This document shows positions 2,660 to 20,592 of a stretch of 24,000 nt of DNA, in pieces. The translations under genes and the position numbers were made by a program. Source of the stretch: Actinomycetota bacterium (GTDB lineage Bacteria > Actinomycetota > CADDZG01 > WHSQ01); the NCBI GenBank assembly GCA_030446465.1, contig JAUJNI010000003.1, positions 61,543 to 85,542 of the forward strand. The letters are read 5' to 3'. The notes below the pieces were generated by a model. That model saw only the letters and a program-made list of their open reading frames with translations. It searched no databases and was not told where the DNA came from. Every line of letters starts with the position of its first letter. Position 1 is the stretch's first letter.

Positions 2660-4042
2660 CTACGCCTCCGTCCCGCCCACGGTCATCCGGCCCAGAAGGA
2701 CCGTCGCCATGCCGTTGGTGACGGGAGCGTGCTGGCCGTCCTTGCCGCACACTCCTTCTTTACGGTCGAAGTCGGACCCGACCGCCTCGATCACGCCCAG
2801 CACCTCGGGGCCGTTGCCGATCAAGTTGGCGCCCTTGATTGGGTATGCAAGCTCGCCTTTTTCGATCATGTAGGCCTCCGCCATGCCAAAGACAAAGTTG
2901 CCGGTGGCGGGATTGACCTCGCCGCCGGCGAAAGTGGCCGCGTAGACGCCCCGCTCGATTGACCTGATGATGTCCTCGGGGTCGTCCTGTCCCGGCTCGA
3001 GATCGGTGTTCGTCATACGAACGATGGGGAGGTGGGCGTAGGACTGCCGGCGGCCGTTGCCCGTCGGGGGGGCCTCGATCTTCCCGGCGGACCGCAGGTC
3101 GCTCAGGTGACCGATCAGCACGCCCTTGTCGAACAGCACGGTGCGTTGCGCGGGGGTGCCCTCGTCGTCGACCCCGAAGGACCCCCACGAGCCCGGTTTG
3201 GTGGCGTCGTCGACGATCGTCACGATGTCGGACCCGAAACGATCCCCACGTCTCTTTGCGTAGACGCTCGCCTCCTTTACCAACGTGTCGGCCTCGAGGC
3301 CGTGGCCACAGGCCTCGTGAATCAGGACTCCTCCGGTGCCGGGCGCGAGAACTACCGGGAACTCTCCTGCGGGCGACGGCTTCGCCTCCAGCATCCGCAG
3401 GGCCTTGGCCGCGGCCTTCGAACCGAGCTCTGCGGGCGGGAGCCGTTCAAAGAGCTCGAAGCCTCCGGAGTGACCCGGCGCTTCGAAGCCGGTTGCGATC
3501 TGCCCGTCCCTCCCGGCGACGACCTGCACCGCGAAACGAACGCGGGTGCGATCGTCCTCTGCACGGCGTCCGTCGGATGCAGCGATCAACACCCGTTGCC
3601 TGATATCGGCGTACGAAGAGATCACCTGACGGACCGCATCCCCTTTGATCCGGGCCGCGTGGTCGGCCTCGACGAGGGCCGCAACCTTGTCCCCGGCGCC
3701 CACATCCTCCGGGCGTACCTGCACGGCGGCGGTTGAGGAGGCTCCAACCATGCGCAGGTCCCTCGCCTCCACGGGCCCCTCGGACAACCCCGCCCGAGCC
3801 GACCGGGCGGCGTCCAGCAGCGCCTCCTGGGTGAGCAGATTGGTGTAGGCGTAGGAGGCCCTCTCGCCCGAGATCAGCCGGATGCCTGCCCCTCGGTCAC
3901 GGCCCGACGAAACGTCTTCCACTCTGGAGTCCTCGAGCCTCAGAGCAGTCGATCGGCGGTCCTCGACGAACAGCTCGGCAAGGTCCCCGCCGCGCCCGAG
4001 CGCCTCCGCCAGGACCCTCTTTATGACACCGTCGTCGAGCAT
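2660..4042 (-). CDS. tldD: TldD-family metalloprotease
   Basis: HEACGHGLE zinc-binding motif and GEVNPATGNFVFG C-terminal motif. I place the start at ATG 4042 (MLDDGVIKRVLAEAL...), giving about 460 aa. The 153 upstream codons of the 613-aa ORF look non-protein-like. Confidence 0.85.
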   Translation of the reverse strand: MLDDGVIKRVLAEALGRGGDLAELFVEDRRSTALRLEDSRVEDVSSGRDRGAGIRLISGERASYAYTNLLTQEALLDAARSARAGLSEGPVEARDLRMVGASSTAAVQVRPEDVGAGDKVAALVEADHAARIKGDAVRQVISSYADIRQRVLIAASDGRRAEDDRTRVRFAVQVVAGRDGQIATGFEAPGHSGGFELFERLPPAELGSKAAAKALRMLEAKPSPAGEFPVVLAPGTGGVLIHEACGHGLEADTLVKEASVYAKRRGDRFGSDIVTIVDDATKPGSWGSFGVDDEGTPAQRTVLFDKGVLIGHLSDLRSAGKIEAPPTGNGRRQSYAHLPIVRMTNTDLEPGQDDPEDIIRSIERGVYAATFAGGEVNPATGNFVFGMAEAYMIEKGELAYPIKGANLIGNGPEVLGVIEAVGSDFDRKEGVCGKDGQHAPVTNGMATVLLGRMTVGGTEA

Positions 4043-4315
4043 GGAAAGGGCAGGATACGGCCCGGCCCACTTACTGGGTTCGTGCGCTTGTGCGTGTCGA
4101 TATGAGCGATGTAGTCTCACGTCGGCACACCGGCCTACCCAGCCCCTCAGCCGCTGGCACTTACAAGGAGCCCACGCCTGACAAGCCAAGACGGAGCCAG
4201 CTTCACCAGCCAGCAGGTCGGCCGGCTCAACTCCATCCAGGAACGCCTCACCGAAGCCCGCCGGGAGCTCGACGCGCTCATCGGGGACGCGTACCTTCGA
4301 CCCAGGGCATCGGTC

Positions 4316-4507
4316 GTGCCGGTCCACTTCCTCGACCTCGCCTCCGCCGTCGAGAAGCTGAGGTGGGCTGAAAAGGAATGGAGAGAGCTCAACCAGCAGG
4401 TTCGGGAGGCCCGGAGGAGCCCGGGCGGCGACGGCGCCGTCGATATGCCGGCTCACGAGCAACCGCACGACCTCCTCAGGCTCGTGCCGGAGGCGCGCCA
4501 ACTCTAG
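4316..4507 (+). CDS. Hypothetical small protein (coiled-coil-like); true 5' end unresolved
   Basis: Strong third-position GC bias in this frame from about 4199 to the TAG at 4505-4507. The only canonical start in frame is GTG 4316. The frame is open back to 4115 with no ATG/GTG/TTG. Confidence 0.3.
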   Translation: MPVHFLDLASAVEKLRWAEKEWRELNQQVREARRSPGGDGAVDMPAHEQPHDLLRLVPEARQL

Positions 4508-5282: not shown

Positions 5283-7195
5283 ACTGCCTCTCTTTCGGTG
5301 ACCACATCTCCGCTTGCCAAGACGAGGCCATCCTCGCACCTCGTCTCGATCGCCCCGTCGGAGAACTGCTCGTGATACAGGGCCGCGTAAGCGCCATCCC
5401 TGGCAAGTAAGTCGGCATGGGAGCCCCGCTCGGTGATCTTTCCCTTGTCGACGAACAAGATCGTGTCCGCTGCAAGGATGGTCGACAGCCTGTGGGCGAT
5501 GGCGATGGTGGTCCGACCTTGGATCAGAGGAGACAACGCTTGCTGGACGAGACGTTCGGAGTGAGTGTCGAGCGCGCTGGTCGCCTCGTCGAGGATGAGG
5601 ATGTGCGGGTTCTTCAATATGACGCGCGCGATGGCGAGGCGCTGTTTCTCGCCGCCGGACATCTTGTAGCCGCGCTCTCCTACCGTGGTGTCTAAGCCCT
5701 CAGGCATCTCCACGATTCGGTCCCAGATGTAGGCCGCCCGGGCTGCGTCTTCGAGTTCCTCGTCGCTCGCCTCGGGATTCCCGTACCTGAGGTTCTCTCT
5801 GATCGTGGCGTTGAACAGATAGGTCTCCTGAGTCACCATCCCAATGATGTCGCCGAGGGACTCGAGCTTGATGTCCCTGACGTCAACGCCATCGACACGC
5901 ACGCTTCCTCGCGTGACGTCGTAGAGCCGAGGGACCAGGTAGGTGAGCGTCGTCTTGCCCGCGCCTGAAGGTCCCACCAGGGCGACCAGCTTGCCCGGCT
6001 CGACCTCGAAGTCGACGCCAGAGATAGTCCACACTCTTTCTTCCTCGGGACCGATATCCCGGCTTCGGTCGTACTTGAACCAGACGTTCTCGAACGAGAC
6101 CCGGCCCCTGACCTCTTGCGGCCTCAGCTCTATGGCCCCGTCGCGATCGACGATGTCTCGCTCGAGGTCGAGGTACTCGAAGATGCGATCGAACAACGCG
6201 AGCGCGGATTGCACCTCTACGGTCACGTTGAGAAGCTGTCCCATGGGGAAGAACAGCCGGCTCTGCAGGGTCGTGAATGCGACGATCGTCCCTACGATTC
6301 CCTCGGGCGCGCCGGCCCCTCCTCTCAAGAAGAGGTAGCCACCGACCAGATAGACAAATGCCGGGGTGATCGAGAAGAAGATTTGAATGAGTGAGAAGAA
6401 GCCTCGGCCCACCATCGTCCGGCGGACCTCCAGCTCGGAAAGCCTTTGGTTCTCGGCGCGGAACCTTCCGATCTCGTAGGGCTGTCTGCCGAACGCCTTT
6501 GACAACAGGATCCCCGACACGGACAGGGTCTCCTGCATGTGCGCGGTGAGATCGGCTAGCGACTCCTGCGTTTGTCCCGACACCTCTCGCCGGATCTTGC
6601 CGACCTTTCTGCTGATCAGCAGGAACACCGGGAGGATCCCGAGCGACAACACCGTAAGCTCCCAGCTCAGCACGAACATCACCACGACCGTCGAGATCAC
6701 CGTCGCGATGTTGGACACGATGCTCGACGCAGTGTCCGTAAGAACGCCTTGGACGCCGCCCACGTCGTTCGAGAGCCTCGACTGGATCTCGCCGGTGCGC
6801 GTGGAGGTGAAGAACTTCAGGGACATGTGCTGCAAGTGCGCGTAGAGCGCGTTGCGCAGGTCGCGCATGACGCTCTGCCCAACCCGGTTGTTGATGTAGG
6901 TCTGCCATAGCCCGAGAAGGCCGCTCACTATCGGCGTCGCGATCATCACGGCGACCACGATGAGAAGCAGGCGCAGCCTGTCGCTCTCGGGCCCTTCCCC
7001 CAGGATCACTTGGTTGAACACGACCTTGATCAGCAACGGGTTGATCAGGCCAAGGCCTGCGGTGACGAGGATCAACAGCGCAACAAGTCCGACCTGTGCC
7101 CTGTATGGGCGGAAGGTCGCGACGATGCGCGCGAAGGTGCCAGGCCTTGCCGGGTGCTCCGGGGTGGCCGGAGGCGTCAGCCTGTGAGGGCGCAA
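5279..7195 (-). CDS. ABC transporter, fused permease/ATP-binding exporter (MsbA/type I exporter-like)
   Basis: N-terminal six-helix-like TM domain. Walker [13 protein letters not shown] signature MSGGEKQR, Walker [14 protein letters not shown]-loop IAHRLST. The TTG start at 7195 is uncertain. Confidence 0.9.
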
Positions 7196-7287: not shown

Positions 7288-7935
7288 TCACCTCGTCCTC
7301 ACCGCAGCAACGACACCGTCTCTTATGGGCAGGATGAAAGACCGAAAGTTTGGGTCGGACGCGATCGCCCGGTTGGTCTTGTCGATCGCCTCGGTGTAGC
7401 CGTCGCGCACGTCGGGCTCGTCCGACTCCCCCGTCACCCGACCGGACCACAGCATGTTGTCGCACAGGTAGAGGCCACCGATACGTACCCTCGTCTTCGC
7501 CGCTTCCCATGCGTCCGGATAGCCGTCCTTGTCGATGTCGCAGTAGACGATGTTGAAGTCACCCGCGGTCTCGTTGAAAACGTCGAGCGCGGGGCCAACG
7601 TGATAGTCGATCGGTGCGTCGAGACCGGCTCGTCCGAGGAAGTCCAGCGCCTTGGACTGGTTGGCCGGGTCGGTGTCGGTGAGATGTATCTCGCCGTCGG
7701 GACCGGTGGCGCGCGACCACCAGTAGGCCGAGTAACCGAAACCAGATCCCATCTCAAAGATTCTGCGAGCGCCGTTCGCTCGCGCCATCACTTCGAGAAA
7801 CCTGCCGCACAACCTGCCGATTATCGGGAAGTGCTCCCTGGCTGCGAGCGCCTCCATCTCGAGCAGTACCGGCTCGTCGTCCTTGTGAGCAAGCTCGGTC
7901 AGATAGCGATCGACGGCAGGATGGAGAATGTCCAC
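7288..7935 (-). CDS. Class I SAM-dependent O-methyltransferase (family 3, caffeoyl-CoA OMT-like)
   Basis: 215 aa. IFEMGSGFGYSAYW SAM-binding motif and DIDKDGYP motif typical of cation-dependent OMTs. Confidence 0.8.
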   Translation of the reverse strand: MDILHPAVDRYLTELAHKDDEPVLLEMEALAAREHFPIIGRLCGRFLEVMARANGARRIFEMGSGFGYSAYWWSRATGPDGEIHLTDTDPANQSKALDFLGRAGLDAPIDYHVGPALDVFNETAGDFNIVYCDIDKDGYPDAWEAAKTRVRIGGLYLCDNMLWSGRVTGESDEPDVRDGYTEAIDKTNRAIASDPNFRSFILPIRDGVVAAVRTR

Positions 7936-7947
7936 GTCCTCTCCTTT

Positions 7948-8769
7948 CTAGGTGCGTTTTGACCTGCTATGTAGGTCAGATGTCGGCGAGTTCGCCCTTG
8001 CTCCCACCAGAGCTCGCAGATCGTCGTGTAGTCGGGGGCCGGACGCCACAAGACCGTGGGAGGTTCCGTGGGGGGCGGGGAGGTCGCTCACGACACCGCC
8101 CGCCTCCTTCACGATAAGCGCACCGGCCGCGTTGTCCCACACCTCCATCACAGCCTCGTAGAAGCCGTCGAAGCGGCCGCATGCTAGCCAGCAGAGATCG
8201 AGCGCCGCAGAGCCCGCCCGGCGTATGTCTCGGACGCACGGCAAGACCCTTGCTACGACCTCTGCCTGTGCGCGCCGCGACGCAGTGTCGTAGGCGAACC
8301 CTGTCCCAATTAACGCCTGCGACAAGTCGTCACAATGGGAGACCGTGATCGGCTCGTCGTTAAGCGTGGCCCCCCCACCACGAGCCGCGCTGAAGGTCTC
8401 GTTGCGGTTCGGGTCGTGAACGACTCCGACAAGCGTTCCGGTTGGGTCCTCCACCGCAATGCTCACGCACCACACGGGGATGCCGAACAGATAGTTGACG
8501 GTCCCGTCTAGGGGATCGATGATCCAGCGGTAACCGGACGAGGACTCGCCCGCGCCACCCTCCTCGCCCAAGAAGCCGTCGTCGCCTCGCTTCTCGGAGA
8601 TCAGCCCGGTTATGAGCCTCTCGGAGTCCCTATCCGCCTTACTCACCAGGTCGGTTGGAGAAGTCTTCGTGCTCACGGCTTCCGCGGGGTGACGGAACCT
8701 CGACATCAGCAAGTCACCGGCCGCGCGAGCGGCGTGAGCTGCAAGTTCGACTAACTCCTGATGGACCAC
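7948..8769 (-). CDS. Inositol monophosphatase family protein
   Basis: WIIDPLDGTVNY and FLGEE motifs, and the C-terminal WDNAAG motif characteristic of IMPase/SuhB/HisN-type phosphatases. GTG start. Confidence 0.85.
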   Translation of the reverse strand: MVHQELVELAAHAARAAGDLLMSRFRHPAEAVSTKTSPTDLVSKADRDSERLITGLISEKRGDDGFLGEEGGAGESSSGYRWIIDPLDGTVNYLFGIPVWCVSIAVEDPTGTLVGVVHDPNRNETFSAARGGGATLNDEPITVSHCDDLSQALIGTGFAYDTASRRAQAEVVARVLPCVRDIRRAGSAALDLCWLACGRFDGFYEAVMEVWDNAAGALIVKEAGGVVSDLPAPHGTSHGLVASGPRLHDDLRALVGARANSPTSDLHSRSKRT

Positions 8770-8772
8770 GAT

Positions 8773-10146
8773 CTAGGGCAAATTTCTTTCGACCTCTTGC
8801 CATGCTTTGCGTGCGGCGATCAACACCGCGTCCCACACCGGCGAGAAGGGAGGAGCGTAGGACAAGTCCATGTTGAGGATCTCGTCGACTGCCATCTCGT
8901 TCCACAAGGCGGTCGCCAGAACGTCGATGCGCTTGGCCGCGCCTTCACGCCCGATGATCTGCGCACCGAGAAGTCTTCCGGACACCTTCTCGACTATGAG
9001 CTTTGTCTTGATGGGTGCGGCGCCGGGGTAGTAGCCCGCGCGGGTCGACGAGTCGACGACGACCGAAAGGGGTTGAAACCCCGCGTCCACCGCCTCGCTT
9101 TCCTTCAACCCCGTGCGCCCCACCTCGAGGTCGCAGATCTTCGACACCGCGGTCCCAATAACTCCGGGAAAGGTCTCGTAACCGCCGCCGATGTTGATGC
9201 CGGCGACCCTGCCCTCTTTGTTTGCGTGCGTCCCGAGGGGGATCACGACCGGCCGTCGCGACACGCGGTGAAACTTTTCTGCGCAGTCCCCCGCGGACCA
9301 GACCGCGTCGACCAGTGTTCGCATCTGCCGGTCGACGCGTACGCCCCCCGAGGGTCCTAGGGGAACGCCGGACTCGGCGGCGAGCTGAACGTTCGGCGCG
9401 ACTCCCAGGCCGAGCACGACGATATCCGCAGGAAGAGTCCGCTGTTGCGTGACGACGGCATCGATGCGGCCGTTGCTCGTCTCGAAGCCCTCGACTGGCT
9501 CTTCAAGGTAGACGTTCACTCCGAGCTTGCGAATGCCGTCGGCGACCAGCGCGCCCATGTCCGGGTCGAGCGTCGACATCGGTTGAGCCGCCATCTCGAC
9601 CAGGGTCACGTCCATGCCCCGCCGTACGAAGGCTTCGGCCATCTCGATGCCGATGTAGCCGCCACCGACCACCACCGCCCTCTTGGGGTCCTGCTGTTCG
9701 ACGACCCTGCGGATGGCCACGCCGTCGTCGAGGACTTGGACGCCGAACAAACCGTCAGCGTCCGAGCCGGGCCAGGGCGGCTTTATAGGGGTGGCGCCGG
9801 TCGCCACCATGAGAAGGTCGTAGCCCTCCCACGTCTCGACCCCGTGGTCGAGGTCTTTCACCTGCACCGCGCCCTTGTCGAGGTCGATCGCGGTGACCTC
9901 GTGACGAACACGCACCTCGATGGAGTTGCGCTCGCGGAACTGCTCGGGGCTACGGACGACCAGGTCGTCCACCTGCCCCACGACGTCGCCCACGAAGTAC
10001 GGGATGCCGCAGGCCGAGTAGGAGCTGTAGTTGCCGCGCTCGAATGCGAGGATCTCGAGATCGTCCGGCCCCCGGCGCCTGCGTGCCTGAGACGCCGCGC
10101 TCATCCCGGCGGCGTCCGCCCCCACTACGATCAAGCGCTCAGCCAT
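8773..10146 (-). CDS. FAD-dependent pyridine nucleotide-disulfide oxidoreductase, CoA-disulfide reductase / NADH oxidase family
   Basis: N-terminal VVGADAAGMSAA dinucleotide fold, single redox Cys in SYSACGIPY, second VVGGGYIGIEMAE NAD(P) fold, 457 aa. Confidence 0.8.
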   Translation of the reverse strand: MAERLIVVGADAAGMSAASQARRRRGPDDLEILAFERGNYSSYSACGIPYFVGDVVGQVDDLVVRSPEQFRERNSIEVRVRHEVTAIDLDKGAVQVKDLDHGVETWEGYDLLMVATGATPIKPPWPGSDADGLFGVQVLDDGVAIRRVVEQQDPKRAVVVGGGYIGIEMAEAFVRRGMDVTLVEMAAQPMSTLDPDMGALVADGIRKLGVNVYLEEPVEGFETSNGRIDAVVTQQRTLPADIVVLGLGVAPNVQLAAESGVPLGPSGGVRVDRQMRTLVDAVWSAGDCAEKFHRVSRRPVVIPLGTHANKEGRVAGINIGGGYETFPGVIGTAVSKICDLEVGRTGLKESEAVDAGFQPLSVVVDSSTRAGYYPGAAPIKTKLIVEKVSGRLLGAQIIGREGAAKRIDVLATALWNEMAVDEILNMDLSYAPPFSPVWDAVLIAARKAWQEVERNLP

Positions 10147-10329: not shown

Positions 10330-10458
10330 GGCCCCTCCTTCTTTGTCGTCGTGTGGCTTGTCCTCACCCCACTGCGTAAAGCTACAGGCTAGGCCCCTCG
10401 GCACACCTGCGGGGTCACCCACCAGCAACGCTCTCAGTAGGAACACGACAACAATCAG

Positions 10459-10531
10459 TGCCCTGGGCAGGATTCGAACCTGCGACACCCGGTTTAGGAA
10501 ACCGGTGCTCTCTCCCCTGAGCTACCAGGGC
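10459..10531 (-). tRNA. tRNA-Arg (anticodon CCT)
   Basis: The minus strand reads GCCCTGG TA GCTC AGGGGAGA GAGC A CCGGT TTCCTAA ACCGG GTGTC GCAGG TTCGAAT CCTGC CCAGGGC A. This is a full cloverleaf with a 7-bp acceptor stem, TTCGAAT T-loop and anticodon CCT. CCA is not encoded. Confidence 0.9.
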
Positions 10532-10565
10532 CAGGGCGGGACTTGGCCAAATGGTGGGACAAAAC
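10531..10565. repeat. Direct repeat copy A (35 bp) beginning at the 5' end of tRNA-Arg
   Basis: ccagggcgggacttggccaaatggtGggacaaaac matches 16508-16542 with one mismatch. It contains the TTGGCCAA palindrome. Confidence 0.85.
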
Positions 10566-10699
10566 TACTCGCGGACCAGGCTCAAGACAGCTTTCCCACG
10601 TTAGAAGCCAGCTAAGGGCGACCGTGAGCCGGTCAATCGGGGTGTGACGCCGCGTCCCACCAACGTCGAACTGTCTCAGCCTCTCAATAGGTTGCTCTT

Positions 10700-10990
10700 A
10701 TGACTCCGGATGAGGAACTTGAGAAGGTGCTCGCCGCCTTCGTTCGGCGACGTCCGAAAGACGTGAGATTGTCGCCGCTCGAGGTGCTTGAGATCGTCAC
10801 CCGGGACGCCTTCAGGTGTCGGATCTGCGGCAGGTCCGTGGATGCCCAACCACGCCGTGTCATTCGTCTCGAGGGAGACCAGGCGGGCAGCGGAGCCGAA
10901 CAGATGATTACGGTTTGCGACGGGTGTCGACACCGGCTACTGATGGAGCGCTTCAGCCACAGGACTGAAGGGAGTTCGGATGACGAGTGA
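10700..10990 (+). CDS. Hypothetical zinc-ribbon protein (two CxxC pairs; degenerate HNH-like layout)
   Basis: 96-aa ORF with CRIC ... CDGC. No clear SD. First ORF inside the repeat-bounded segment. Confidence 0.4.
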   Translation: MTPDEELEKVLAAFVRRRPKDVRLSPLEVLEIVTRDAFRCRICGRSVDAQPRRVIRLEGDQAGSGAEQMITVCDGCRHRLLMERFSHRTEGSSDDE

Positions 10991-11152
10991 CTTGCAACTC
11001 ACGGCGGCGTCGATCGTTGATGCGTTCGGCGCCCAGGGTGGTCCGTCGGCGAACGTGGTTCCTTCACGATAGAGACCCACGTCCGGGACGTTCAACGCCT
11101 TACCCCGTGTCCCCGGGCGCGGGGCAGTAACGCCGCTCAAGATGACCGCTGG

Positions 11153-11386
11153 TTAAGGGAGTTCCTCTTCCGCTGTGGTTAGGACCATGTGTAGGAGCCG
11201 ACGGCGACTCTCGCGATATTCATCACCTAGGTTGACGTGTCCGCCGTTCCGGGGCCAGAGGTCGCCATCGCTTGACAGCGCGAAGACGAGGTCTCGGCGG
11301 TCGTAGTCGTAGTTCCCGACGAAGAGGATCTTCGCTGCAGCGAACTTAGAACCCTGGGAACGGACCCACTCCGCCGCGGCAGGCAT
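11153..11386 (-). CDS. Hypothetical protein
   Basis: 77-aa ORF with no recognisable motif. Upstream in-frame sequence looks non-coding. Confidence 0.25.
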   Translation of the reverse strand: MPAAAEWVRSQGSKFAAAKILFVGNYDYDRRDLVFALSSDGDLWPRNGGHVNLGDEYRESRRRLLHMVLTTAEEELP

Positions 11387-11593
11387 CTTGTCGAGCCCGT
11401 CGGGCGCCTCACCGCGCTCGACCTCGCTCCAGTCGTTCCACGCCGTCCACCGAGGTCGCGAGGCGCAGGTAGAGCTCGGCGTCCGAGTAGACCGAGCGCC
11501 TCGGACGCCTTCGCGTTCTGGCGGGACCAGTTCGATGGACGAGCGGCGAGTAACGCTTCTGGTATGGCGGCGGCGCGCTGCGCTCTGCGCCCC

Positions 11594-12625
11594 CTATCCG
11601 TGCCGGGCTCGGAGTCGTCCCTGCTTCGCCGCCATTCGCACCGGTACGAGGAGGAAGAGCGCGCCGAGCAGGATGACTGCCGCAGCCGGCAATGCGCCAC
11701 CGATCGGCACCCCTGGCGGCTTTCCGCTGATCACGGAGCGCTCGCCGACGATGAATGCGAACACGCCTGCGAAGTAGAGAAGCTCCCTCACGACCGCTTG
11801 TGCGGCACCCCTCTGGTTTCGCACCGCAAATTTGTAGCCTCCTCGCACGACGACGAGGAAGACGGCGGCCGCGACCCATAGCGCGAGTCCGTCGCCGTTG
11901 CCTTTGAATCCGGTGCGGAATCCGTTCGCCCCGAGCACGAGATTGTTCAGCGCGCCGTACATCATCACGGCAAGGCCGCCGACGAGCAGGAGCTCCGTCG
12001 CGAGTGGGCCCAGGAAACGGAACGCGGCGCTGCCCCGTCGATCTCCGCGGACCGCGGCCTTCAGCGCCCCGCGCAGCACGACCAGCACGAGCATGCCGGT
12101 GATCGTCAGACCGAGGAAGCTGACCCAGTTCCACTTCGGCGTCATCAGGCGTTCGTTGCCGATCTGTCCGAGCCCGATCCCGAGCAAGATCGTGCCGACG
12201 GCGAGAATCACGCCGTCCGGGACGAAGTAGCTCACCCGCTCGGCTCTCCGCGCCTCCGGCGTGAGTGCGAAAGCGATCCCGCCGAGCACCAAGCCGATCG
12301 GGACGGTCACGAACTGAGCGACCGCGATCGAGTATCCGACACCGCCTTCGTGGAACTCCGTGTTCGTGACGGCGAGATAGACGAGCGAGGCCAGCAGCGT
12401 GAGCCCTCCCGCCGTCATCGCTGCATGCGCGCCTCTCGCGAGCAGCAACGTCCCACCAATTGTCGCCAGCGCTCCGGCCACGGCCTCTGCGGCTCGCGGA
12501 CCCGCATCGACGGGAGCGATGAACGCCATCGCCGCCATCGCTCCCCCGAGCGCGAGGCCGCCGAAGCCGAGCGCTTTCGCACTGCCCATCACTGATCCCG
12601 TGAACGTGGTCTCGGCCGTGGTCAT
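11594..12625 (-). CDS. Polytopic integral membrane protein of unknown family (about 10 predicted TM segments)
   Basis: 343 aa, Gly/Ala/Leu-rich hydrophobic segments throughout. ATG at 12625 preceded by AGGAG with a 5-nt spacer. The Arg-rich 420-aa ORF in another frame of the same strand is a shadow ORF. Confidence 0.75.
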   Translation of the reverse strand: MTTAETTFTGSVMGSAKALGFGGLALGGAMAAMAFIAPVDAGPRAAEAVAGALATIGGTLLLARGAHAAMTAGGLTLLASLVYLAVTNTEFHEGGVGYSIAVAQFVTVPIGLVLGGIAFALTPEARRAERVSYFVPDGVILAVGTILLGIGLGQIGNERLMTPKWNWVSFLGLTITGMLVLVVLRGALKAAVRGDRRGSAAFRFLGPLATELLLVGGLAVMMYGALNNLVLGANGFRTGFKGNGDGLALWVAAAVFLVVVRGGYKFAVRNQRGAAQAVVRELLYFAGVFAFIVGERSVISGKPPGVPIGGALPAAAVILLGALFLLVPVRMAAKQGRLRARHG

Positions 12626-12848
12626 TCAGGCTCCTGTCATAGGTGATAATGTCCTCTCCCGAGATTAGCATACCTAAAAAAAATATTAGACATACCTAAA
12701 AGAGGCCAAGGAGGGTGAAGCCGCGTTCGCATGGCGAGAGCGTCTTCATCACCCGTGCACATGAGGGGCAACCATCTTGAAGAGCGATCCGGTACCGCGA
12801 GATCCCGAAACTCATACGATTGAATCGCCACCTACAGCGTCCGTATGA
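12626..12848. promoter_or_regulatory. Divergent intergenic/promoter region with an AT-rich tandem direct repeat
   Basis: The only strongly AT-rich stretch I noticed in the window. ATTAGCATACCTAAAA (12664-12679) and ATTAGACATACCTAAAA (12685-12701) are spaced about 21 bp apart, between divergently oriented genes. Confidence 0.5.
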
Positions 12849-13250
12849 GTGATGAGAGTCAGAGAGCAGCTCGCGCCTCGTCCCCCTGACGGAGAGAATA
12901 CGCGCGCTCCCGCCACGGTTCGCCGCGGTGCTGCAAGGGGTATAGCCGCCGGACTCGTAGCGATCGGGTGCTGCGTTGGCCCGGTTGTCGCGGCACTCCT
13001 GGGGTTGATGAGTGCGGCAGCTGCGGCCGATCTAGCTAACGATCTTTACGCCGACTGGGGATGGGCATTCAAGGTCGCCGGCGCGGTCTTCGGTGGCGCT
13101 GCGTTGCTCGCGGCGCGCAGGCACGCAAGAGCGTGCAGGCTTGAAGATCGGTCGATCATTCCATTTGCCCTCGTCTTGGTAGCGACTGGAACCGTGACGT
13201 ATCTCGTGCTCTACGCGGCCACAACGTCGCTCGGACGGGCAGCAACGTGA
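12849..13250 (+). CDS. MerT-like three-TM membrane protein with a vicinal Cys pair in TM1
   Basis: LVAIGCCVGPVVAALLG resembles the MerT TM1 motif (..CCLGPLVL..). There are two more TM segments with a Cys (HARAC) in the loop between them. The start is uncertain (GTG 12849 or ATG 12852). Confidence 0.55.
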   Translation: MMRVREQLAPRPPDGENTRAPATVRRGAARGIAAGLVAIGCCVGPVVAALLGLMSAAAAADLANDLYADWGWAFKVAGAVFGGAALLAARRHARACRLEDRSIIPFALVLVATGTVTYLVLYAATTSLGRAAT

Positions 13251-13420
13251 TGGTGGAACTACTCCTCCCTCGGACGGACGGCGGCGTGGCCGCCCAGATC
13301 GGGCTTACGTTCCTGTTGCTCGGGCCCCTGCCGTATCTGCTGATCAGGGGCAGCCACAAAGATGCCACCTGGGTCACCGGTGGCTTCGGCGCGATATGGG
13401 CAGTGTTCACTGCTCTTTAG
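13250..13420 (+). CDS. 56-aa two-TM small membrane protein (not in the supplied ORF track)
   Basis: ATG 13250 overlaps the upstream TGA (TGATG). The peptide is MVELLLPRTDGGVAAQIGLTFLLLGPLPYLLIRGSHKDATWVTGGFGAIWAVFTAL. High third-position GC; TAG at 13418-13420. Confidence 0.45.
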   Translation: MVELLLPRTDGGVAAQIGLTFLLLGPLPYLLIRGSHKDATWVTGGFGAIWAVFTAL

Positions 13421-13480
13421 GACGCTTCATTGACGATCGGCGAATCGCACGAGGTCAACGGCTTGAACAAGGAGAAGCGC

Positions 13481-14911
13481 ATGCAGGAGGCGGGACCTAA
13501 GTCCGACGTGAAGCTTGGAACCACGCATTCTCTCTGCCCGCGCTGTAAGCGCGTGGTCCCCGCTGACATCGTCGAACGCGACGGTCGCATCGTCATGATC
13601 AAGGAGTGCCCCAAGCACGGGGTCTCAGAAGCACTCACCTGCTCGGACGCCGAGTGGTATCGGTGGAGCCGTCGCTTCCAGCGTCCGGGCAGACCTCCGG
13701 TGCACCGAGCCACAGAGACCCACCTCGGCTGCCCGTATGATTGCGGCTTCTGCCCCGAGCACGAGCAACATGCGTGCGTGACGCTTTTCGAGATCACGCA
13801 GGCATGCAATCTGGAATGTCCTGCTTGCTTCGCCGCAAGCCCGCACGGTCGACATTCCACGATGGAGGAGATCGACTCGATGCTCGATGCCGTAACGCTT
13901 GCGGAGGGCGGTCCCGCGGACGTGGTGATGCTCTCGGGTGGAGAACCAACTATCCACCCGCAGTTCGAGGAGATCGTCGCGCACGTGGCAGGGTCCGGAC
14001 GCGTTAAGCACCTCATGGTGAACTCGAACGGGATCCGTTTCTCACGCGATCCGAAGCTGTGCGACTTGCTCGCTGCGAATCAGGTCAAGGTGTACCTACA
14101 GTTCGACGGCCTGGAAAGTGGATCGCTCGAGATGTTGCGTGGGAGTGATCTCGTTGCGACGAAGCTAGAGGCACTCGACCAGCTCGGCAAGGCCGGAGTC
14201 ACCGTTGTCTTGGTAGCGACGATAGCGAAAGGCGTGAACGATCACGAGATCGGAGACATCGTCGATCTCGGCGTTAAACATCCCGCGGTTCGCGCCGTGA
14301 GCTTCCAACCCCAGTTCGGCGAGGGCCGCTGGGTCCCGTTCGATCCGTTAAATCGCACGACAGTGACCGATGTGATCGCCGCGATCGCCGAGCAGACGGG
14401 GGGCACCTTCGAGACGACGGATTTCGTCCCGATCCCCTGTTGCGACCCCATCTGTACAGCGGCTACGTACGCGTGGATACAAGACGGCGACGTCACACCA
14501 CTGCCTCGGATCGTCGATGTCGAGCACTACCTCGACTACATCAAAGATTCCGCTTCTCCCGCGGTTAACCCCGCGCTCGAGGACGATTTCGTGGAGATGC
14601 GAGGGACGCTCGAAACCCTTTACTCGAAATCGAACCCGGCAGGATCCGAGGGCCAGAGTCATGCGTTTACGTGTGCCTGCGGCCCCCTGGTGGACGTAGC
14701 AAACGCTGATCTCTCGATGCGCCTGTTCTCGATCACCATCGAAGCGTTCATGGACCGACATAATTTCGACGTGTCACGAGCGCGTAAGTGCTGTATCCAG
14801 GAGGCGCTCCCCGACGGACGGATCATTCCGTTCTGCGTGTACAACACCCTGCATCGCTTTGCCCCCGGCAAACACGCCCGTCCCCCCGTCGAACAGACAA
14901 CGAACCTGTGA
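13481..14911 (+). CDS. Radical SAM enzyme with N-terminal Cys knuckle and additional Cys clusters (MJ0619 / GDGT-MAS-like architecture)
   Basis: CNLECPAC (CxxxCxxC) at 13805-13828. Upstream are CPRC...CPKHG and CPYDCGFCPEHEQHAC; C-terminally IPCCDPIC, FTCAC and KCCIQEALPDGRIIPFCVYN. ATG 13481 is preceded by AAGGAG with a 6-nt spacer, so I prefer it to TTG 13430. Confidence 0.85.
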   Translation: MQEAGPKSDVKLGTTHSLCPRCKRVVPADIVERDGRIVMIKECPKHGVSEALTCSDAEWYRWSRRFQRPGRPPVHRATETHLGCPYDCGFCPEHEQHACVTLFEITQACNLECPACFAASPHGRHSTMEEIDSMLDAVTLAEGGPADVVMLSGGEPTIHPQFEEIVAHVAGSGRVKHLMVNSNGIRFSRDPKLCDLLAANQVKVYLQFDGLESGSLEMLRGSDLVATKLEALDQLGKAGVTVVLVATIAKGVNDHEIGDIVDLGVKHPAVRAVSFQPQFGEGRWVPFDPLNRTTVTDVIAAIAEQTGGTFETTDFVPIPCCDPICTAATYAWIQDGDVTPLPRIVDVEHYLDYIKDSASPAVNPALEDDFVEMRGTLETLYSKSNPAGSEGQSHAFTCACGPLVDVANADLSMRLFSITIEAFMDRHNFDVSRARKCCIQEALPDGRIIPFCVYNTLHRFAPGKHARPPVEQTTNL

Positions 14912-15723
14912 TCGAGACGGATACGGTCACGAATGAGATCAAGGCGTCGTGTTGTACGACGTGGGAACATCCTGCAGCTCGTCTCCTATTAGGCGACCAT
15001 CTTCACCCCGGAGGCCGCGCTCTTACGGCGGCGACCGTCGATAGCGTCGGAGCAGTTGCCGGCGATGTGGTCCTCGATGTCGGATGCGGAACCGGATCCG
15101 CTGTTCGTCTCATGCAGGAGAGAGGTATCCGGGCTGTAGGCATAGACCTATCGGAGCGCGCGACAAGCGCGGCTTTCGATGCGGGCGCACGCCAACTCGT
15201 TGTCGCCGATGGCGAGCGGCTCCCGTTCTCCAGCACATCCATGGACGGCTCTACGGTGGAGTGCGTCACGTCGCTGTTCACTGACAAGCAGCGGGCGTTC
15301 GGCGAACTCTACCGAGTCCTCAAACCAGGAGGCCGTCTGGCTATGTCCGACGTCGCTCTGGAGAAGCCGTTGCCAACCCTCCTTGAAGGAGCCGCCGCCA
15401 GGTCCTGCTGCATCGGCGGAGCCCTTTCCGTTCGAGGTTACGAGCGCGCCTTATCCGATGCCGGATTCGAGGTGCTGAGGGCGGTCGACCACTCCGACGC
15501 TCTGATCGCGACGATAGAGCAGGTCAGGCGCAGGCTCTCGCTCTTCGAGGTCACCGCCGTCGCAAGTGGTTTCGACCTCTCGGGTCTCGGCGTCTCGTCC
15601 GAAGCTCTAGAGACCGGCCGTACGGTCGCCGCAATGCTGGTCGAGGAAGTGCGGAATGGCGTCCTCGGGTACACCTCTATCACCGCCCGCAAGCCGGGGC
15701 CGGGTCCGTCACGAGACGAGTAG
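14908..15723 (+). CDS. Class I SAM-dependent methyltransferase with two vicinal Cys pairs (ArsM-like features)
   Basis: GTG 14908 overlaps the radical SAM stop (GTGA). VLDVGCGTG SAM motif; CC at 14950-14955 followed by LLLGDHLHPGG; second CC in SCCIGGAL (15406-15411), resembling the ECLGGAL region of As(III) methyltransferases. Confidence 0.85.
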   Translation: MIETDTVTNEIKASCCTTWEHPAARLLLGDHLHPGGRALTAATVDSVGAVAGDVVLDVGCGTGSAVRLMQERGIRAVGIDLSERATSAAFDAGARQLVVADGERLPFSSTSMDGSTVECVTSLFTDKQRAFGELYRVLKPGGRLAMSDVALEKPLPTLLEGAAARSCCIGGALSVRGYERALSDAGFEVLRAVDHSDALIATIEQVRRRLSLFEVTAVASGFDLSGLGVSSEALETGRTVAAMLVEEVRNGVLGYTSITARKPGPGPSRDE

Positions 15724-15731
15724 GTCACGAG

Positions 15732-16286
15732 ATGTTGTTGAAGCAGCCCGCTCCGGAAGTTGGGTTCACCACCCTGGGCGGTGAAGTCATCGAACTCCGT
15801 TCGCTGCGTGGGCGCCGGTCGTCCTGACGTTCCTCCACTATATCGGTTGACTGTTCTGCGAACACCATCTCGTGAAGATGGAAAAGAGGAAGGATCGGTT
15901 CGCAGCGGCGGATGCAAGAGTCCTGGTCGTCTCGTTCGAATCGCCCCACAGGTTGAGTACGCTTCAACAGCGACTGAACCTCTCGTTCACCCTCGTCGTA
16001 GACGAGGGGTCGCCCGGCGTACAGAGCGTTTGGGCTAGGACGCGCTGATTTCGCCAGGACATATCCCGACCCCCGGGTCGCCTGGGGCTACGCCAAGATT
16101 ATCGCCGGCGGCGACCTACCCGATCTGCATCGTGGTCAGGACCGCCGTCAACTAGGGGGTGACTTCGTTCTAGACGCTGACGGGGACATCGCGTTCGCTC
16201 ACCCCGAACGGGGGCCGGAGGATCGAGCTCACGTCGCCGCTCTGACGCGCAGCAGTGCCGCAGGCTTAGGATCCCGTGGCCCGTAG
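15732..16286 (+). pseudogene. Prx-like2 / AhpC-TSA-family redoxin, disrupted (two frameshifts, TGA at the first Cys of CxxC)
   Basis: Three frame segments join into a redoxin-like sequence. The first is MLLKQPAPEVGFTTLGGEVIELRSLRG (frame of 15732). The second is PVVLTFLHYIG*LFCEHHLVKM...LNLSFTLVVDE (frame of 15812, TGA at 15848-15850). The third is RPAYRAFGLGRADF...QLGGDFVLDADGDIAFAH (frame of 16002, TAG 16284-16286). Confidence 0.7.
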
Positions 16287-16417
16287 GGCGCCGAAGCTTC
16301 GAATCGCTATCTTGCGAACGAGGGACCCCCGAACAAGTCGGCGCAATCGCGGCTGAAAGGGGCCTCTCGAGTTTAGCCGACCTACACCTTCCGACCGCCA
16401 GACGAGCGTCGTCGCCT

Positions 16418-16574
16418 GGGTCGTTACCAAAAGTGCCTTCTCGCGTTACCCGGCCGTGTCCCAAGGCACCGCTGACCAGCACGGTCAAGGGTTTTGTCCG
16501 CGTCCGACCAGGGCGGGACTTGGCCAAATGGTAGGACAAAACCTCAAACGAATATCCATTGGATGCCGTCGCGC
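16418..16574. repeat. Repeat copy B (about 157 bp unit; contains the 35-bp core at 16508-16542)
   Basis: 16418-16514 matches 20444-20540 with a single mismatch (97 nt). Homology continues with indels to 16574 / 20592. Confidence 0.9.
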
Positions 16575-16780
16575 TGCCCCGCAAGCCTGTGATGGTGAGG
16601 AGATTGCTCAATGGACTCGAGGTAGTCCTTCAGCGTGAAGCCACACGCTCTTCCTACCGCAAACGCGAGGATGACAACACTCAACAAACACGGATAGCAA
16701 CTGGGGGTCGTCCGAGCAAGAGGGTTCCGGTGACGGATCGGCCACACCGCCCATGGCCCGTTACTACGGGACTCTCGCTC

Positions 16781-17056
16781 TCATGCCATCCGGCACTGGA
16801 CCTCGGCCTTAACGGCGTCCTCGGGTCGGTCCGTCTCGATCCGGAACGACAAATCGTAGTGCCGCGCCTTCGGGTTGCGCAGTTCTCGAGGCGGCCAGAA
16901 TGTCGGTCGGATCTGCTGGAAGCCGCGGCCTAGCGCCTCGTCTCCCTCCGCGAACACGACGGCGTGGCATTCGGCTTCGGCGTTGATCATCGGCTCGCCT
17001 ATAAACCGCAACGGGCTCGCGACCTGCACAGCGTCGCTCCCGACCGGTTCGAGCAC
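16781..17056 (-). CDS. Hypothetical protein
   Basis: 91-aa ORF with moderately protein-like composition and no motif recognised. Confidence 0.35.
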   Translation of the reverse strand: MLEPVGSDAVQVASPLRFIGEPMINAEAECHAVVFAEGDEALGRGFQQIRPTFWPPRELRNPKARHYDLSFRIETDRPEDAVKAEVQCRMA

Positions 17057-17125
17057 GATCTCTGTGGGCCGCCACCCCGGTTCGCTGAATTGCCGGCACG
17101 CGATCTTTACGTCGGTCGCGGAGCC

Positions 17126-17689
17126 TTAAAACTCTGAGCCGTGAATGCCACCGGCGCGTTCCCAGTCCTCGTCCGGCGCTGCGATGTACTCAGGGTGGCC
17201 TTCGTAGATGAGTGAGCCAGCATCGTTGTAGGCACGCGTCCGGCAACGGCTCCCGGGCCCCTCATAGGGGATCGGCCCTACCCACAGGCCCGCACCACGA
17301 ACCACCGTTCCCTTGTCACCCGCCCGGGCGGTGGAGAACTCCCAGTGGGGGACTTCCTGGGTATCGGGGAGCGAGAACGCCTTCAGCCCGGAAATAGTAT
17401 CCGCGTCGAAATTCCCATCGAGCGCCACAACGTTCCATCTGCCGCCGCGTAAGGCGACGGTGATCCATGCATCTGTCTCCCCGGAGACTGACTTGCACGT
17501 TTCGTACGTCTCCCCCTTACGGTTGGTGAAGATCCCGCACCTCGAGCGACCGAACCCGACTCGCCACGTAGCGTCGTCAACCGGCTTCACTTCTTCGCTA
17601 AAGGAGTAGAAGTCGCCCAAAGGGTCGAAGAGGCCGGCGGTGGCCAGCGCCCGGACCGTGAACACCTCCGCTCGCTCCCCTGGAGTCAT
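17126..17689 (-). CDS. Hypothetical protein
   Basis: Protein-like sequence from MTPGERAEVFTV... (ATG 17689), about 187 aa. The ORF is open further upstream to 17842, but that part is Arg/Ala/Ser-rich. No motif recognised. Confidence 0.5.
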   Translation of the reverse strand: MTPGERAEVFTVRALATAGLFDPLGDFYSFSEEVKPVDDATWRVGFGRSRCGIFTNRKGETYETCKSVSGETDAWITVALRGGRWNVVALDGNFDADTISGLKAFSLPDTQEVPHWEFSTARAGDKGTVVRGAGLWVGPIPYEGPGSRCRTRAYNDAGSLIYEGHPEYIAAPDEDWERAGGIHGSEF

Positions 17690-17896
17690 GCGATCAGATG
17701 GCACATCCGTCTCCTCGCGGTGCGCGGGGGGCGTGGCGTCTCCGTCACGAGTCACGAGGAGGGCATGGGAAGCACGCGCTGACAAAGGATGTAACGCCGG
17801 TCGAAAACTCCGGCTCGCGTCCTCCTCAGCACACCTCCACATCCTCCTCCTTCCTGAGACCTTGCCGCGAGCACTTGAGATCCGTGCGGCATGCAG

Positions 17897-20443: not shown

Positions 20444-20592
20444 GGGTCGTTACCAAAAGTGCCTTCTCGCGTTACCCGGCCGTGTCCCAAGGGACCGCTG
20501 ACCAGCACGGTCAAGGGTTTTGTCCGCGTCCGACCAGGGCCACACTTGGCCAAATGTAGGACAAGGCGAATGTCCATTGGATTCCGTCGCGC
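20444..20592. repeat. Repeat copy C (about 149 bp unit, diverged core)
   Basis: See copy B. In the core, accagggcca matches the tRNA-proximal end of copy A, and acttggccaaatg and taggacaa are also shared. Confidence 0.9.

Follow-up and report, generated by a model that had tools for sequence, protein, structure and literature searches.

The 24,000-nucleotide window analysed here (Actinomycetota bacterium, assembly GCA_030446465.1, contig JAUJNI010000003.1, positions 61,543 to 85,542; all coordinates below are those of the window unless another locus is named) carries five same-strand reading frames between positions 12849 and 16286, of which four are intact genes. At the heart of this row lies a gene pair that is conserved across bacterial genomes, translationally coupled and occasionally fused: a Tes-like radical S-adenosylmethionine (SAM) enzyme with clade-specific vicinal cysteines, followed by a methyltransferase of the DVU_1556 family. 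In a subset of genomes the pair is accompanied by an accessory membrane protein of the MerT superfamily. We tentatively propose, at a probability of about 0.4, that the two enzymes carry out radical alkylation and methylation of a thiophilic metalloid or chalcogen on a lipid-like substrate.

Table 1. Coordinates of the gene row and of the features associated with it
Feature	Position	Strand	Description
P1	12849..13250	+	133 aa; membrane protein of three hydrophobic segments, CCVGP invariant in helix 1, Cys96 following helix 2; by profile comparison a divergent relative within the MerT superfamily
P2	13247..13420	+	56-57 aa; small hydrophobic protein, start overlapping the P1 stop; lineage-specific accessory
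Radical SAM enzyme (P3)	13481..14911	+	476 aa; Tes/GDGT-MAS-TrsS superfamily; NCBI start TTG 13430, giving 493 aa
Methyltransferase (P4)	14908..15723	+	271 aa; class I SAM methyltransferase, DVU_1556 family; N-terminal CC, HPGG, C119, C168
Redoxin gene (P5)	15732..16286	+	decayed; SelL-related, AhpC/TSA fold; N- and C-terminal thirds in one frame, middle in another
Frameshift 1	15815..15816	+	one C missing from a C run (RGR/PVVLTF), relative to the L017 homologue
In-frame TGA	15848..15850	+	first position of the redox motif, G-TGA-L-F-C
Frameshift 2	16006..16009	+	one extra G in a G run (VVDEG/RPAYRAFGLG)
Repeat element	16418..16542		just downstream of the gene row; terminator-like hairpin 16473-16487; other copy 20444-20568

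The radical SAM protein comprises the Pfam domains Zn_ribbon_HMPTM and Radical_SAM and is predicted to hold four sites: a Zn-ribbon or rubredoxin-like site, an N-terminal cluster, the radical SAM cluster and a C-terminal cluster. The conserved ligands are C19/C22/C43/H46, C84/C88/C91/H94, C109/C113/C116 and C325/C437/C438/C452, and two vicinal pairs, C320C321 and C437C438, are specific to the clade. The family profile matches GDGT-MAS (PDB 7TOL) over residues 9-464 with an E value of 8.7e-115. The homology to Tes/GDGT-MAS (MJ0619) is thus full-length, with the same four-domain layout and the same kinds of ligands: three Cys and one His at the rubredoxin-like site, three Cys and one His at the N-terminal cluster, the CX3CX2C motif, and the C-terminal cluster cysteines. 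The differences from Tes are as clear. The enzyme does not have the approximately 20-residue Tes insertion, it reads PCCDPxC where Tes has PSVAPIS, and it has a methyltransferase partner and a bacterial host that has no archaeol.

Against the curated NCBIfam models the protein scores 322.3 bits for Tes (NF045702, cut-off 450), 331 bits for TrsS (NF045646, cut-off 490; an end-to-end match and the best in NCBIfam) and 44.2 bits for ArsS (TIGR04167, cut-off 300; radical SAM core only). A preliminary description of this DNA, made without database searches, had wondered whether the enzyme was a true relative of Tes/GDGT-MAS and had found its architecture unlike that of ArsS; the 7TOL match and the ArsS score support it on both counts. 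Ten diverse bacterial homologues score 309-382 bits with the TrsS model, and all of them fall below both the TrsS and the Tes cut-offs; for this reason we place these bacterial homologues, on the strength of their profile scores, in an unnamed third clade beside TrsS and Tes. Among curated families, TrsS and the DVU_1556 family come closest to the pair; judged by the cut-offs, the radical SAM enzyme itself lies outside TrsS, Tes and ArsS.

TrsS is reportedly named for its selenoprotein-rich neighbourhoods, and both it and the DVU_1556 family are attributed to Haft & Tolstoy 2025 (mSystems 10:e0141724). The redoxin gene adjoining the pair in the window, with its TGA-xx-C motif, echoes such neighbourhoods. 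The likeness has its limits: unlike many members of TrsS, the enzyme in the window has no selenocysteine (the reading frame 13481-14911 contains no in-frame TGA), and its host is an aerobic-type actinomycete rather than a Desulfovibrio-like anaerobe. Since NCBIfam already holds a methyltransferase family to which the partner belongs and a sister family of the radical SAM enzyme, the word 'undescribed', used for this module in the preliminary description, was too strong. A table in a 2026 review includes TrsS and the DVU_1556 family without a function, and we found no papers under the locus tags DVU_1555/1556/1557.

Relatives of the radical SAM enzyme are numerous (3589 at E<1e-20), the closest of them, at 58-86% identity, coming from uncultured Actinomycetota. 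We examined 80 genome loci of such relatives and used the 57 best to count adjacency: a P4-like methyltransferase gene lies directly downstream of the radical SAM gene in 48 of the 57. The carriers of the pair belong to Dehalococcoidia and other Chloroflexota, many Actinomycetota (among them Streptomyces, Mycobacterium, Amycolatopsis and Actinomadura), Acidobacteriota and Dormibacterota. In more distant loci from Planctomycetota, Bacteroidota, Bacillota, cyanobacteria and Pseudomonadota the methyltransferase is not adjacent. The 4-nt overlap through which the two genes are coupled in the window (GTGA at 14908-14911, joining the radical SAM stop and the methyltransferase start) recurs in six other loci (L081, L083, L085, L087, L093, L094), and in one metagenomic protein of 743 aa (P0091; L086 8001-10232) the two enzymes are fused. 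Co-localisation in other genomes, on which the preliminary description had staked the pairing, is therefore what we observe.

The cysteine pattern of the radical SAM enzyme co-varies with the presence of the methyltransferase. C321 is found in 54 of 56 methyltransferase-linked sequences and in 1 of 32 methyltransferase-less ones; for C325 the counts are 56/56 and 15/32, for C437 55/56 and 8/32, and for C452 54/56 and 9/32. The methyltransferase-less loci (L058-L080 and others) come from Planctomycetota, Bacteroidota, Paenibacillus, cyanobacteria and other groups, and the C-terminal cluster site of these homologues may be different or absent.

The methyltransferase is a class I SAM enzyme that scores 158.9 bits over residues 31-203 with the DVU_1556 family model (NF045667, cut-off 155). 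Its next-best NCBIfam match is ArsM (PRK11873/NF008823), at 87.7 bits against a cut-off of 263, and ArsM is also second-best among its sequence relatives in the PDB. In phmmer alignments with CmArsM (4FR0/4KW7/5EG5), C119 and C168 fall on C174 and C224, two of the As(III) ligands, and both cysteines are invariant in 55 of 56 orthologues. Across the 56 orthologues and 40 database homologues there is practically no variation at the N-terminal CC, at H33 (part of HPGG), at C119 or at C168. The enzyme shares with ArsM (PDB 4FS8, 4KW7) the class I fold, two arsenic-ligand cysteine positions and an extra N-terminal Cys pair; thiol-redox partners are encoded nearby, and the fusion to an AhpD-like domain described below parallels the ArsM/AhpD architecture in NCBIfam. 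It differs from ArsM in having no ArsM C-terminal domain and in carrying HPGG in place of YGCG. On family scores, we classify it as a member of the DVU_1556 family and not as an ArsM, although the pipelines of the Joint Genome Institute (JGI) name its orthologues 'arsenite methyltransferase'. The preliminary description had likened it to ArsM-type methyltransferases and noted two Cys pairs. The cysteines at the ArsM C174/C224 positions support the likeness; an identity as ArsM is not supported, given the score, the missing YGCG cysteine and the structural comparison below. As for the pairs, the N-terminal one is conserved, and in the 'SCC' pair C167C168 only one Cys is kept.

P1 carries its C41-C42 pair within the first of three hydrophobic segments, as judged by hydropathy, and an alignment of 18 family members has invariant C41, C42, V43, G44, P45, W72, F74, C96, Y118 and T125. 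P1 itself has no Pfam or NCBIfam match above threshold (Pfam MerT, PF02411, gives 8.5 bits against a gathering score of 32.9). Three lines of evidence nevertheless connect it to MerT. Sub-threshold MerT matches occur in 14 of the 18 family members (best E 1.3e-4); hhalign of the P1 family against Tn501 MerT, using a sequence that we confirmed to be 100% identical to an annotated merT, gives a probability of 77.8% and E 1.9e-5 over the first helix only; and the P1 profile matches over its full length (E 1.8e-7) a protein, P0368, that passes Pfam MerT at 36.7 bits and carries two HMA domains. We therefore regard P1 as a divergent member of the MerT superfamily, and the suggestion in the preliminary description that it is MerT-like is borne out by hhalign and the P0368 match. 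Like MerT, it carries the CC(V/L)GP motif in helix 1, consists of three membrane segments and has a Cys in the loop after helix 2; it differs in having one conserved loop Cys (C96) rather than two, and in the absence of merR, merP and merA from the window. The family is small: a profile search of 1.84 billion representatives returned only 217 clusters. Homologues of P1 are immediate neighbours of the pair in L029, L032, L038, L041, L043 and L045 as well as in the lineage of the window, in four different actinobacterial arrangements.

P1 also occurs in other company. In L089 (4637-6351) a gene for a flavoprotein disulfide reductase overlaps it by its 3' end, beside CsoR-CopZ-CopA and with no pair, and in L091 it follows a set of redoxin, DUF3179 and extracytoplasmic function (ECF) sigma factor genes, again with no pair. 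A set of flavoprotein disulfide reductase, TlpA-like redoxin, DUF3179, and ECF sigma factor followed by a protein of about 227 aa recurs in Actinomycetota near P1, the pair or both (L089, L091, L083 2938-7189). P2 has no family match in Pfam or NCBIfam. Its orthologue in L081 has the same overlap with P1, 59% identity and a ratio of nonsynonymous to synonymous substitution rates (dN/dS) of 0.13, and P2 is, on this comparison, a real gene under purifying selection. It is found only in the closest relatives and is absent beside the P1 homologues of other Actinomycetota; being so confined, it was rejected as a conserved component of the system or as a peptide substrate.

The junctions of the gene row are exactly those that had been described earlier, and all four coordinates were reproduced. 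The P1 stop (TGA, 13248-13250) overlaps the P2 start (ATG, 13250-13252) in TGATG; a 60-nt gap (13421-13480) with AAGGAG at 13469-13474 precedes the radical SAM ATG at 13481; the GTGA overlap follows; and an 8-nt gap (15724-15731) leads to the redoxin ATG at 15732. The preliminary description had read the row as a five-gene operon in which every product is centred on cysteines. The row is real, but its fifth gene is broken, and what is kept in other genomes is the radical SAM-methyltransferase core, with P1 in a subset, rather than a five-gene unit. The CC of P1, the Cys groups of the radical SAM enzyme and C15C16 and C167C168 of the methyltransferase are all present, whereas the intact CxxC redoxin is not. 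A Logan contig (L088) is 100% identical to the window over 12606-16447, and a second NCBI assembly (GCA_030447735.1; L092) is 99.76% identical over 11829-17748, with single-nucleotide polymorphisms (SNPs) and indels elsewhere. The small indels of L092, at 16649-16651, 17097-17098, 17347, 17601 and 17726, are all outside the operon, some of them in homopolymer runs. A scan of 12400-16800 for promoters and terminators found no promoter-like sites, and terminator-like sites at chance level.

Genes around the pair in other genomes were surveyed in a census of 52 loci, which took in 296 open reading frames (ORFs) lying no more than 3 kb from the pair. Pyr_redox_2 flavoproteins are the commonest (17 of the 296), followed by extra methyltransferases (about 13), SRPBCC/Polyketide_cyc2 proteins (at least 8), Crp regulators (at least 6) and PlsY (5); DUF3179, DUF427, MauE/DoxX, MarR and redoxins also appear, ArsR-type HTH_5 is seen about three times, and pterin or C1 genes are not found in these neighbourhoods. 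When neighbouring ORFs within ±4 kb are clustered by BLAST, at least 13 loci turn out to carry an SRPBCC gene. The gene that immediately follows the methyltransferase is a CDP-alcohol phosphatidyltransferase in six loci and PlsY in another six. A typical Streptomyces locus consists of flavoprotein, DUF3179, MauE, radical SAM enzyme, methyltransferase, SRPBCC, TlpA and CcdA. In an uncultured actinomycete (L025, downstream of 7573-8337) the methyltransferase ORF runs into an extension of about 330 aa that ends in an AhpD-like CxxC domain (5DIK, E 2.9e-7). ArsR-type regulators lie near the pair in L086; L087 has an ArsR-LMWPc fusion and a glyoxalase, divergent from the pair, along with a chromate transporter. 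The neighbouring flavoproteins were considered as candidates for MerA and rejected, since they reach 304 bits where the cut-off is 454 and do not end in a C-terminal CC.

Taken together, we infer that the pair may act on a single substrate that is both hydrophobic and thiophilic: hydrophobic because of the Tes homology and the SRPBCC and phospholipid genes, thiophilic because of the MerT homologue, the thiol-redox partners and the cysteines that occupy the ligand positions of ArsM. Oxidative methylation of metalloids of the Challenger type, as in the disulfide cascade of ArsM, depends on redox partners, whereas S- and C-methylation do not, and on this ground we rank a metalloid or chalcogen first among the possible substrates. 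ArsS and ArsL are radical SAM precedents for the making of C-As bonds, each of them working with an ArsM. The arsenosugar (ArsS/ArsM) and arsinothricin (ArsL/ArsM) systems thus resemble the pair in combining radical SAM carbon-element chemistry with a Cys-dependent methyltransferase; they differ in that their radical SAM family is unrelated, as the core-only ArsS match indicates, and in that the window has no ars operon context.

In the mechanism that we envisage, the radical SAM enzyme would do as Tes does and take a hydrogen from a carbon that is not activated, in a chain that is hydrophobic and lipid-like. The carbon radical would then not serve to join two tails; the enzyme would couple it to a thiophilic metalloid or chalcogen (As(III)-like, with Sb, Se or Te as possible variants), held by the clade-specific vicinal cysteines next to the C-terminal cluster. 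The methyltransferase would then bind the same atom through C119 and C168 and methylate it, and its N-terminal CC would reduce the oxidised intermediate, as in the ArsM disulfide cascade. Re-reduction of this CC could fall to the thiol-redox partners: the SelL-like redoxin (here decayed), the AhpD fusion (L025), and flavoprotein disulfide reductases or TlpA/CcdA elsewhere. Movement of the soft element through the membrane, or along it, may be the task of the CC pair of P1, with P2 as a putative lineage-specific membrane accessory.

Several observations weigh against this proposal. The methyltransferase scores below the ArsM cut-off and does not have the YGCG cysteine of ArsM (C72), at whose place HPGG stands, with the N-terminal CC 18 residues upstream. 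A Foldseek search of the PDB with its AlphaFold2 model (predicted local distance difference test, pLDDT, 93) has no ArsM among the top 50 matches, which by predicted structure include RebM, AtmM, TleD and phosphoethanolamine N-methyltransferases instead. Of 48 genome loci with the pair, only about 6 have P1 beside it, and P1 occurs without the pair near flavoprotein and copper genes. Annotation of 20 flanking ORFs with Pfam and NCBIfam found no arsR, arsB, acr3 or arsC and no merR, merP or merA in the window, confirming an absence already noted earlier; ars and mer genes are not enriched in the 52 neighbourhoods (HTH_5 in only about three), and the neighbouring flavoproteins do not have the C-terminal CC of MerA. 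Finally, the redoxin is dispensable in this lineage, since it is decayed here and absent from the 86%-identical relative L081. The soft-metal(loid) module of the preliminary description accordingly keeps the status of a suggestion: the cysteines at ArsM positions and the MerT homologue speak for it, the want of enrichment in arsenic and mercury genes against it.

Tes traps a terminal alkyl radical on cluster sulfide and passes through a lipid-S-cluster intermediate (PMC13459092), a route that also fits an explanation without any foreign element. By analogy with MiaB and RimO, the alkyl-S-cluster adduct might be released as a terminal thiol or methylthiolated, with the methyltransferase adding the S-methyl group, while the cysteines and redox partners would handle persulfide and disulfide intermediates and cluster repair. 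Such a modification of lipid tails agrees with the presence of PlsY or a CDP-alcohol phosphatidyltransferase directly downstream in 12 loci and of SRPBCC in at least 13, with the dominance of thiol-redox genes, and not of ars or mer genes, in the neighbourhoods, and with a modelled fold that resembles small-molecule and phospho-base methyltransferases. We rank it second, as unlikely in our judgement but to be taken seriously: S-methyltransferases have no need of a four-Cys site, two of the invariant cysteines sit at the metalloid-ligand positions of ArsM, and the MerT-type CC membrane protein and the ArsR-ArsC neighbours would be left unexplained. Moreover, we know of no terminal thio-lipids from these phyla. 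The full-length homology to Tes is also what one would expect of a bacterial synthase of membrane-spanning lipids (through a branched glycerol dialkyl glycerol tetraether, brGDGT, or iso-diabolic-acid route) to which the methyltransferase would add methyl branches. Synthesis of brGDGTs has been proposed as the role of Tes homologues in bacteria (PMC8941075), lipid genes adjoin some loci, and Acidobacteriota are among the carriers. The known producers argue the other way, as Tes homologues are absent from known diabolic-acid producers and occur in only 3 of 14 iso-diabolic-acid Acidobacteria (PMC13159169). The pair, for its part, has a patchy distribution and an accessory character in Streptomyces, Mycobacterium and Amycolatopsis, genera from which spanning lipids are not known; in the window it lies between repeats, with GC content at third codon positions (GC3) lower than in the flanks. 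The score of the radical SAM protein does not reach the equivalog cut-off for Tes, and neither the invariant four-Cys site nor the MerT-like partner has a role in C-methylation. Of the membrane-lipid alternative raised by the preliminary description, the Tes relationship thus holds, and the spanning-lipid function ranks third among our readings and is improbable.

That P1 is a homologue of MerT, and that orthologues of the methyltransferase bear the JGI name 'arsenite methyltransferase', could suggest a classical soft-metal resistance cassette in which P1 handles or imports Hg or As, the methyltransferase volatilises it, and the radical SAM gene is an unrelated neighbour. We consider this very improbable, because the link between the radical SAM enzyme and the methyltransferase, which extends to fusion, is the most conserved feature of the system while P1 is optional, and because merA, merR, arsR and arsB are all missing from the window. 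It is also established chemistry that electrophilic Hg(II) cannot be methylated by a class I SAM methyltransferase. Many homologues, finally, carry the legacy annotation 'HMPTM / 7,8-dihydro-6-hydroxymethylpterin dimethyltransferase', which would imply methylation of a pterin or other cofactor; several JGI names and the Pfam domain name Zn_ribbon_HMPTM follow it. MJ0619, the founding protein, has reportedly been re-assigned as GDGT-MAS by structure and activity (PDB 7TOL), and with the neighbourhoods devoid of pterin and C1 genes this function is hardly credible.

Hundreds of bacterial 'Tes homologues' are regarded as candidates for brGDGT synthesis, a point of consequence for palaeoclimate proxies. 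A large clade of them, spread over some 50 further genomes and at least four phyla, comes with a Cys-rich, ArsM-like methyltransferase, and this partner together with the co-varying cysteine pattern therefore sets the clade apart from the true tetraether synthases. What emerges is a two-gene unit that is open to cloning and testing. Were a metalloid the substrate, the pair would represent a new enzyme type for the biogeochemistry of arsenic, selenium or antimony; were it sulfur, a new lipid modification. In its most specific form, our proposal would make the pair the missing route to lipid-bound organo-metalloids, in which the Tes-type enzyme bonds a terminal acyl or alkyl carbon to As (or Se or Sb) held by its vicinal cysteines and the methyltransferase methylates the element, the products being As fatty-acid or hydrocarbon-type lipids. 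This version is speculative and quite unlikely, and we found no paper linking Tes-like enzymes to arsenolipids; if true, it would be a third independent radical SAM solution for carbon-arsenic bonds and would mean that bacterial 'Tes homologues' serve something other than the making of brGDGTs.

The fifth gene of the row had been taken for an intact CxxC redoxin; it is instead a decayed TGA-xx-C gene with two frameshifts. The frame that opens at 15732 stops at 15825, and homology continues in another frame before returning near 16010. With the two frameshifts mended and the TGA read as Cys, the product matches AhpC-TSA (3.4e-16) and scores 119.6 bits with the SelL-related model NF040769, just below its cut-off of 120. 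Because both frameshifts and the TGA are identical in the Logan contig and in a second assembly that differs elsewhere, we take the lesions to be real and reject an assembly error. The only other P5 homologue beside a pair, from a Dormibacter (L017; 38% identity), has a TGA at the same aligned position (G-TGA-L-A-C; 5625-5627, minus strand). Independent TGAs at the catalytic first position of CxxC are the usual signature of UxxC selenoproteins, and in view of the TGA shared with this homologue the ancestral redoxin was probably a UxxC selenoprotein, with 15848-15850 as its ancestral selenocysteine codon. Hairpins that fit a loose bacterial geometry of the selenocysteine insertion sequence (SECIS) lie 17-21 nt after the TGA in the window and in L017, and are no better than shuffled sequences (z -1.1 and +0.3, not significant); the selenocysteine reading therefore rests only on the shared position of the TGA.

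The gene row, together with a divergent membrane protein gene, lies between two copies of a repeat. A 35-nt repeat at 10531-10565 abuts the 5' end of a tRNA-Arg(CCT) gene (minus strand; 10458-10565 region) and has further copies at 16508-16542 (97% identity) and 20534-20568 (66%); 16418-16530 and 20444-20556 have a 113-nt version in common (96%). The Logan contig ends inside the 16418-16542 repeat. GC3 is 0.64-0.74 in the operon against 0.77-0.92 in the flanking genes. The position between repeats and the lower GC3 suggest that the operon was acquired as a block, with the 16418-16542 repeat as a possible segment boundary. No integrase was found in the context of this repeat-bounded segment, and an Rfam search of the whole window returned the tRNA-Arg only, with nothing in the repeat region. 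The divergent gene (11594-12625, minus strand) has a high GC3; its product, a multi-pass membrane protein of 343 aa, matches nothing in Pfam or NCBIfam. The stretches 10566-11590 and 16290-17120 contain no convincing ORF.

Further upstream, 300 nt beyond the tRNA, a gene at 8773-10146 (minus strand) encodes a flavoprotein resembling CoA-disulfide reductase (TIGR03385, 439 bits against a cut-off of 579). Its inclusion in the unit is unsupported: its subfamily differs from that of the pair-associated flavoproteins, and it lies 2.7 kb away on the far side of the tRNA. At 1313-4501, also on the minus strand, are tandem genes for metallopeptidases of the TldD/PmbA family (448 and 613 aa), the second with an N-terminal extension of about 170 aa.

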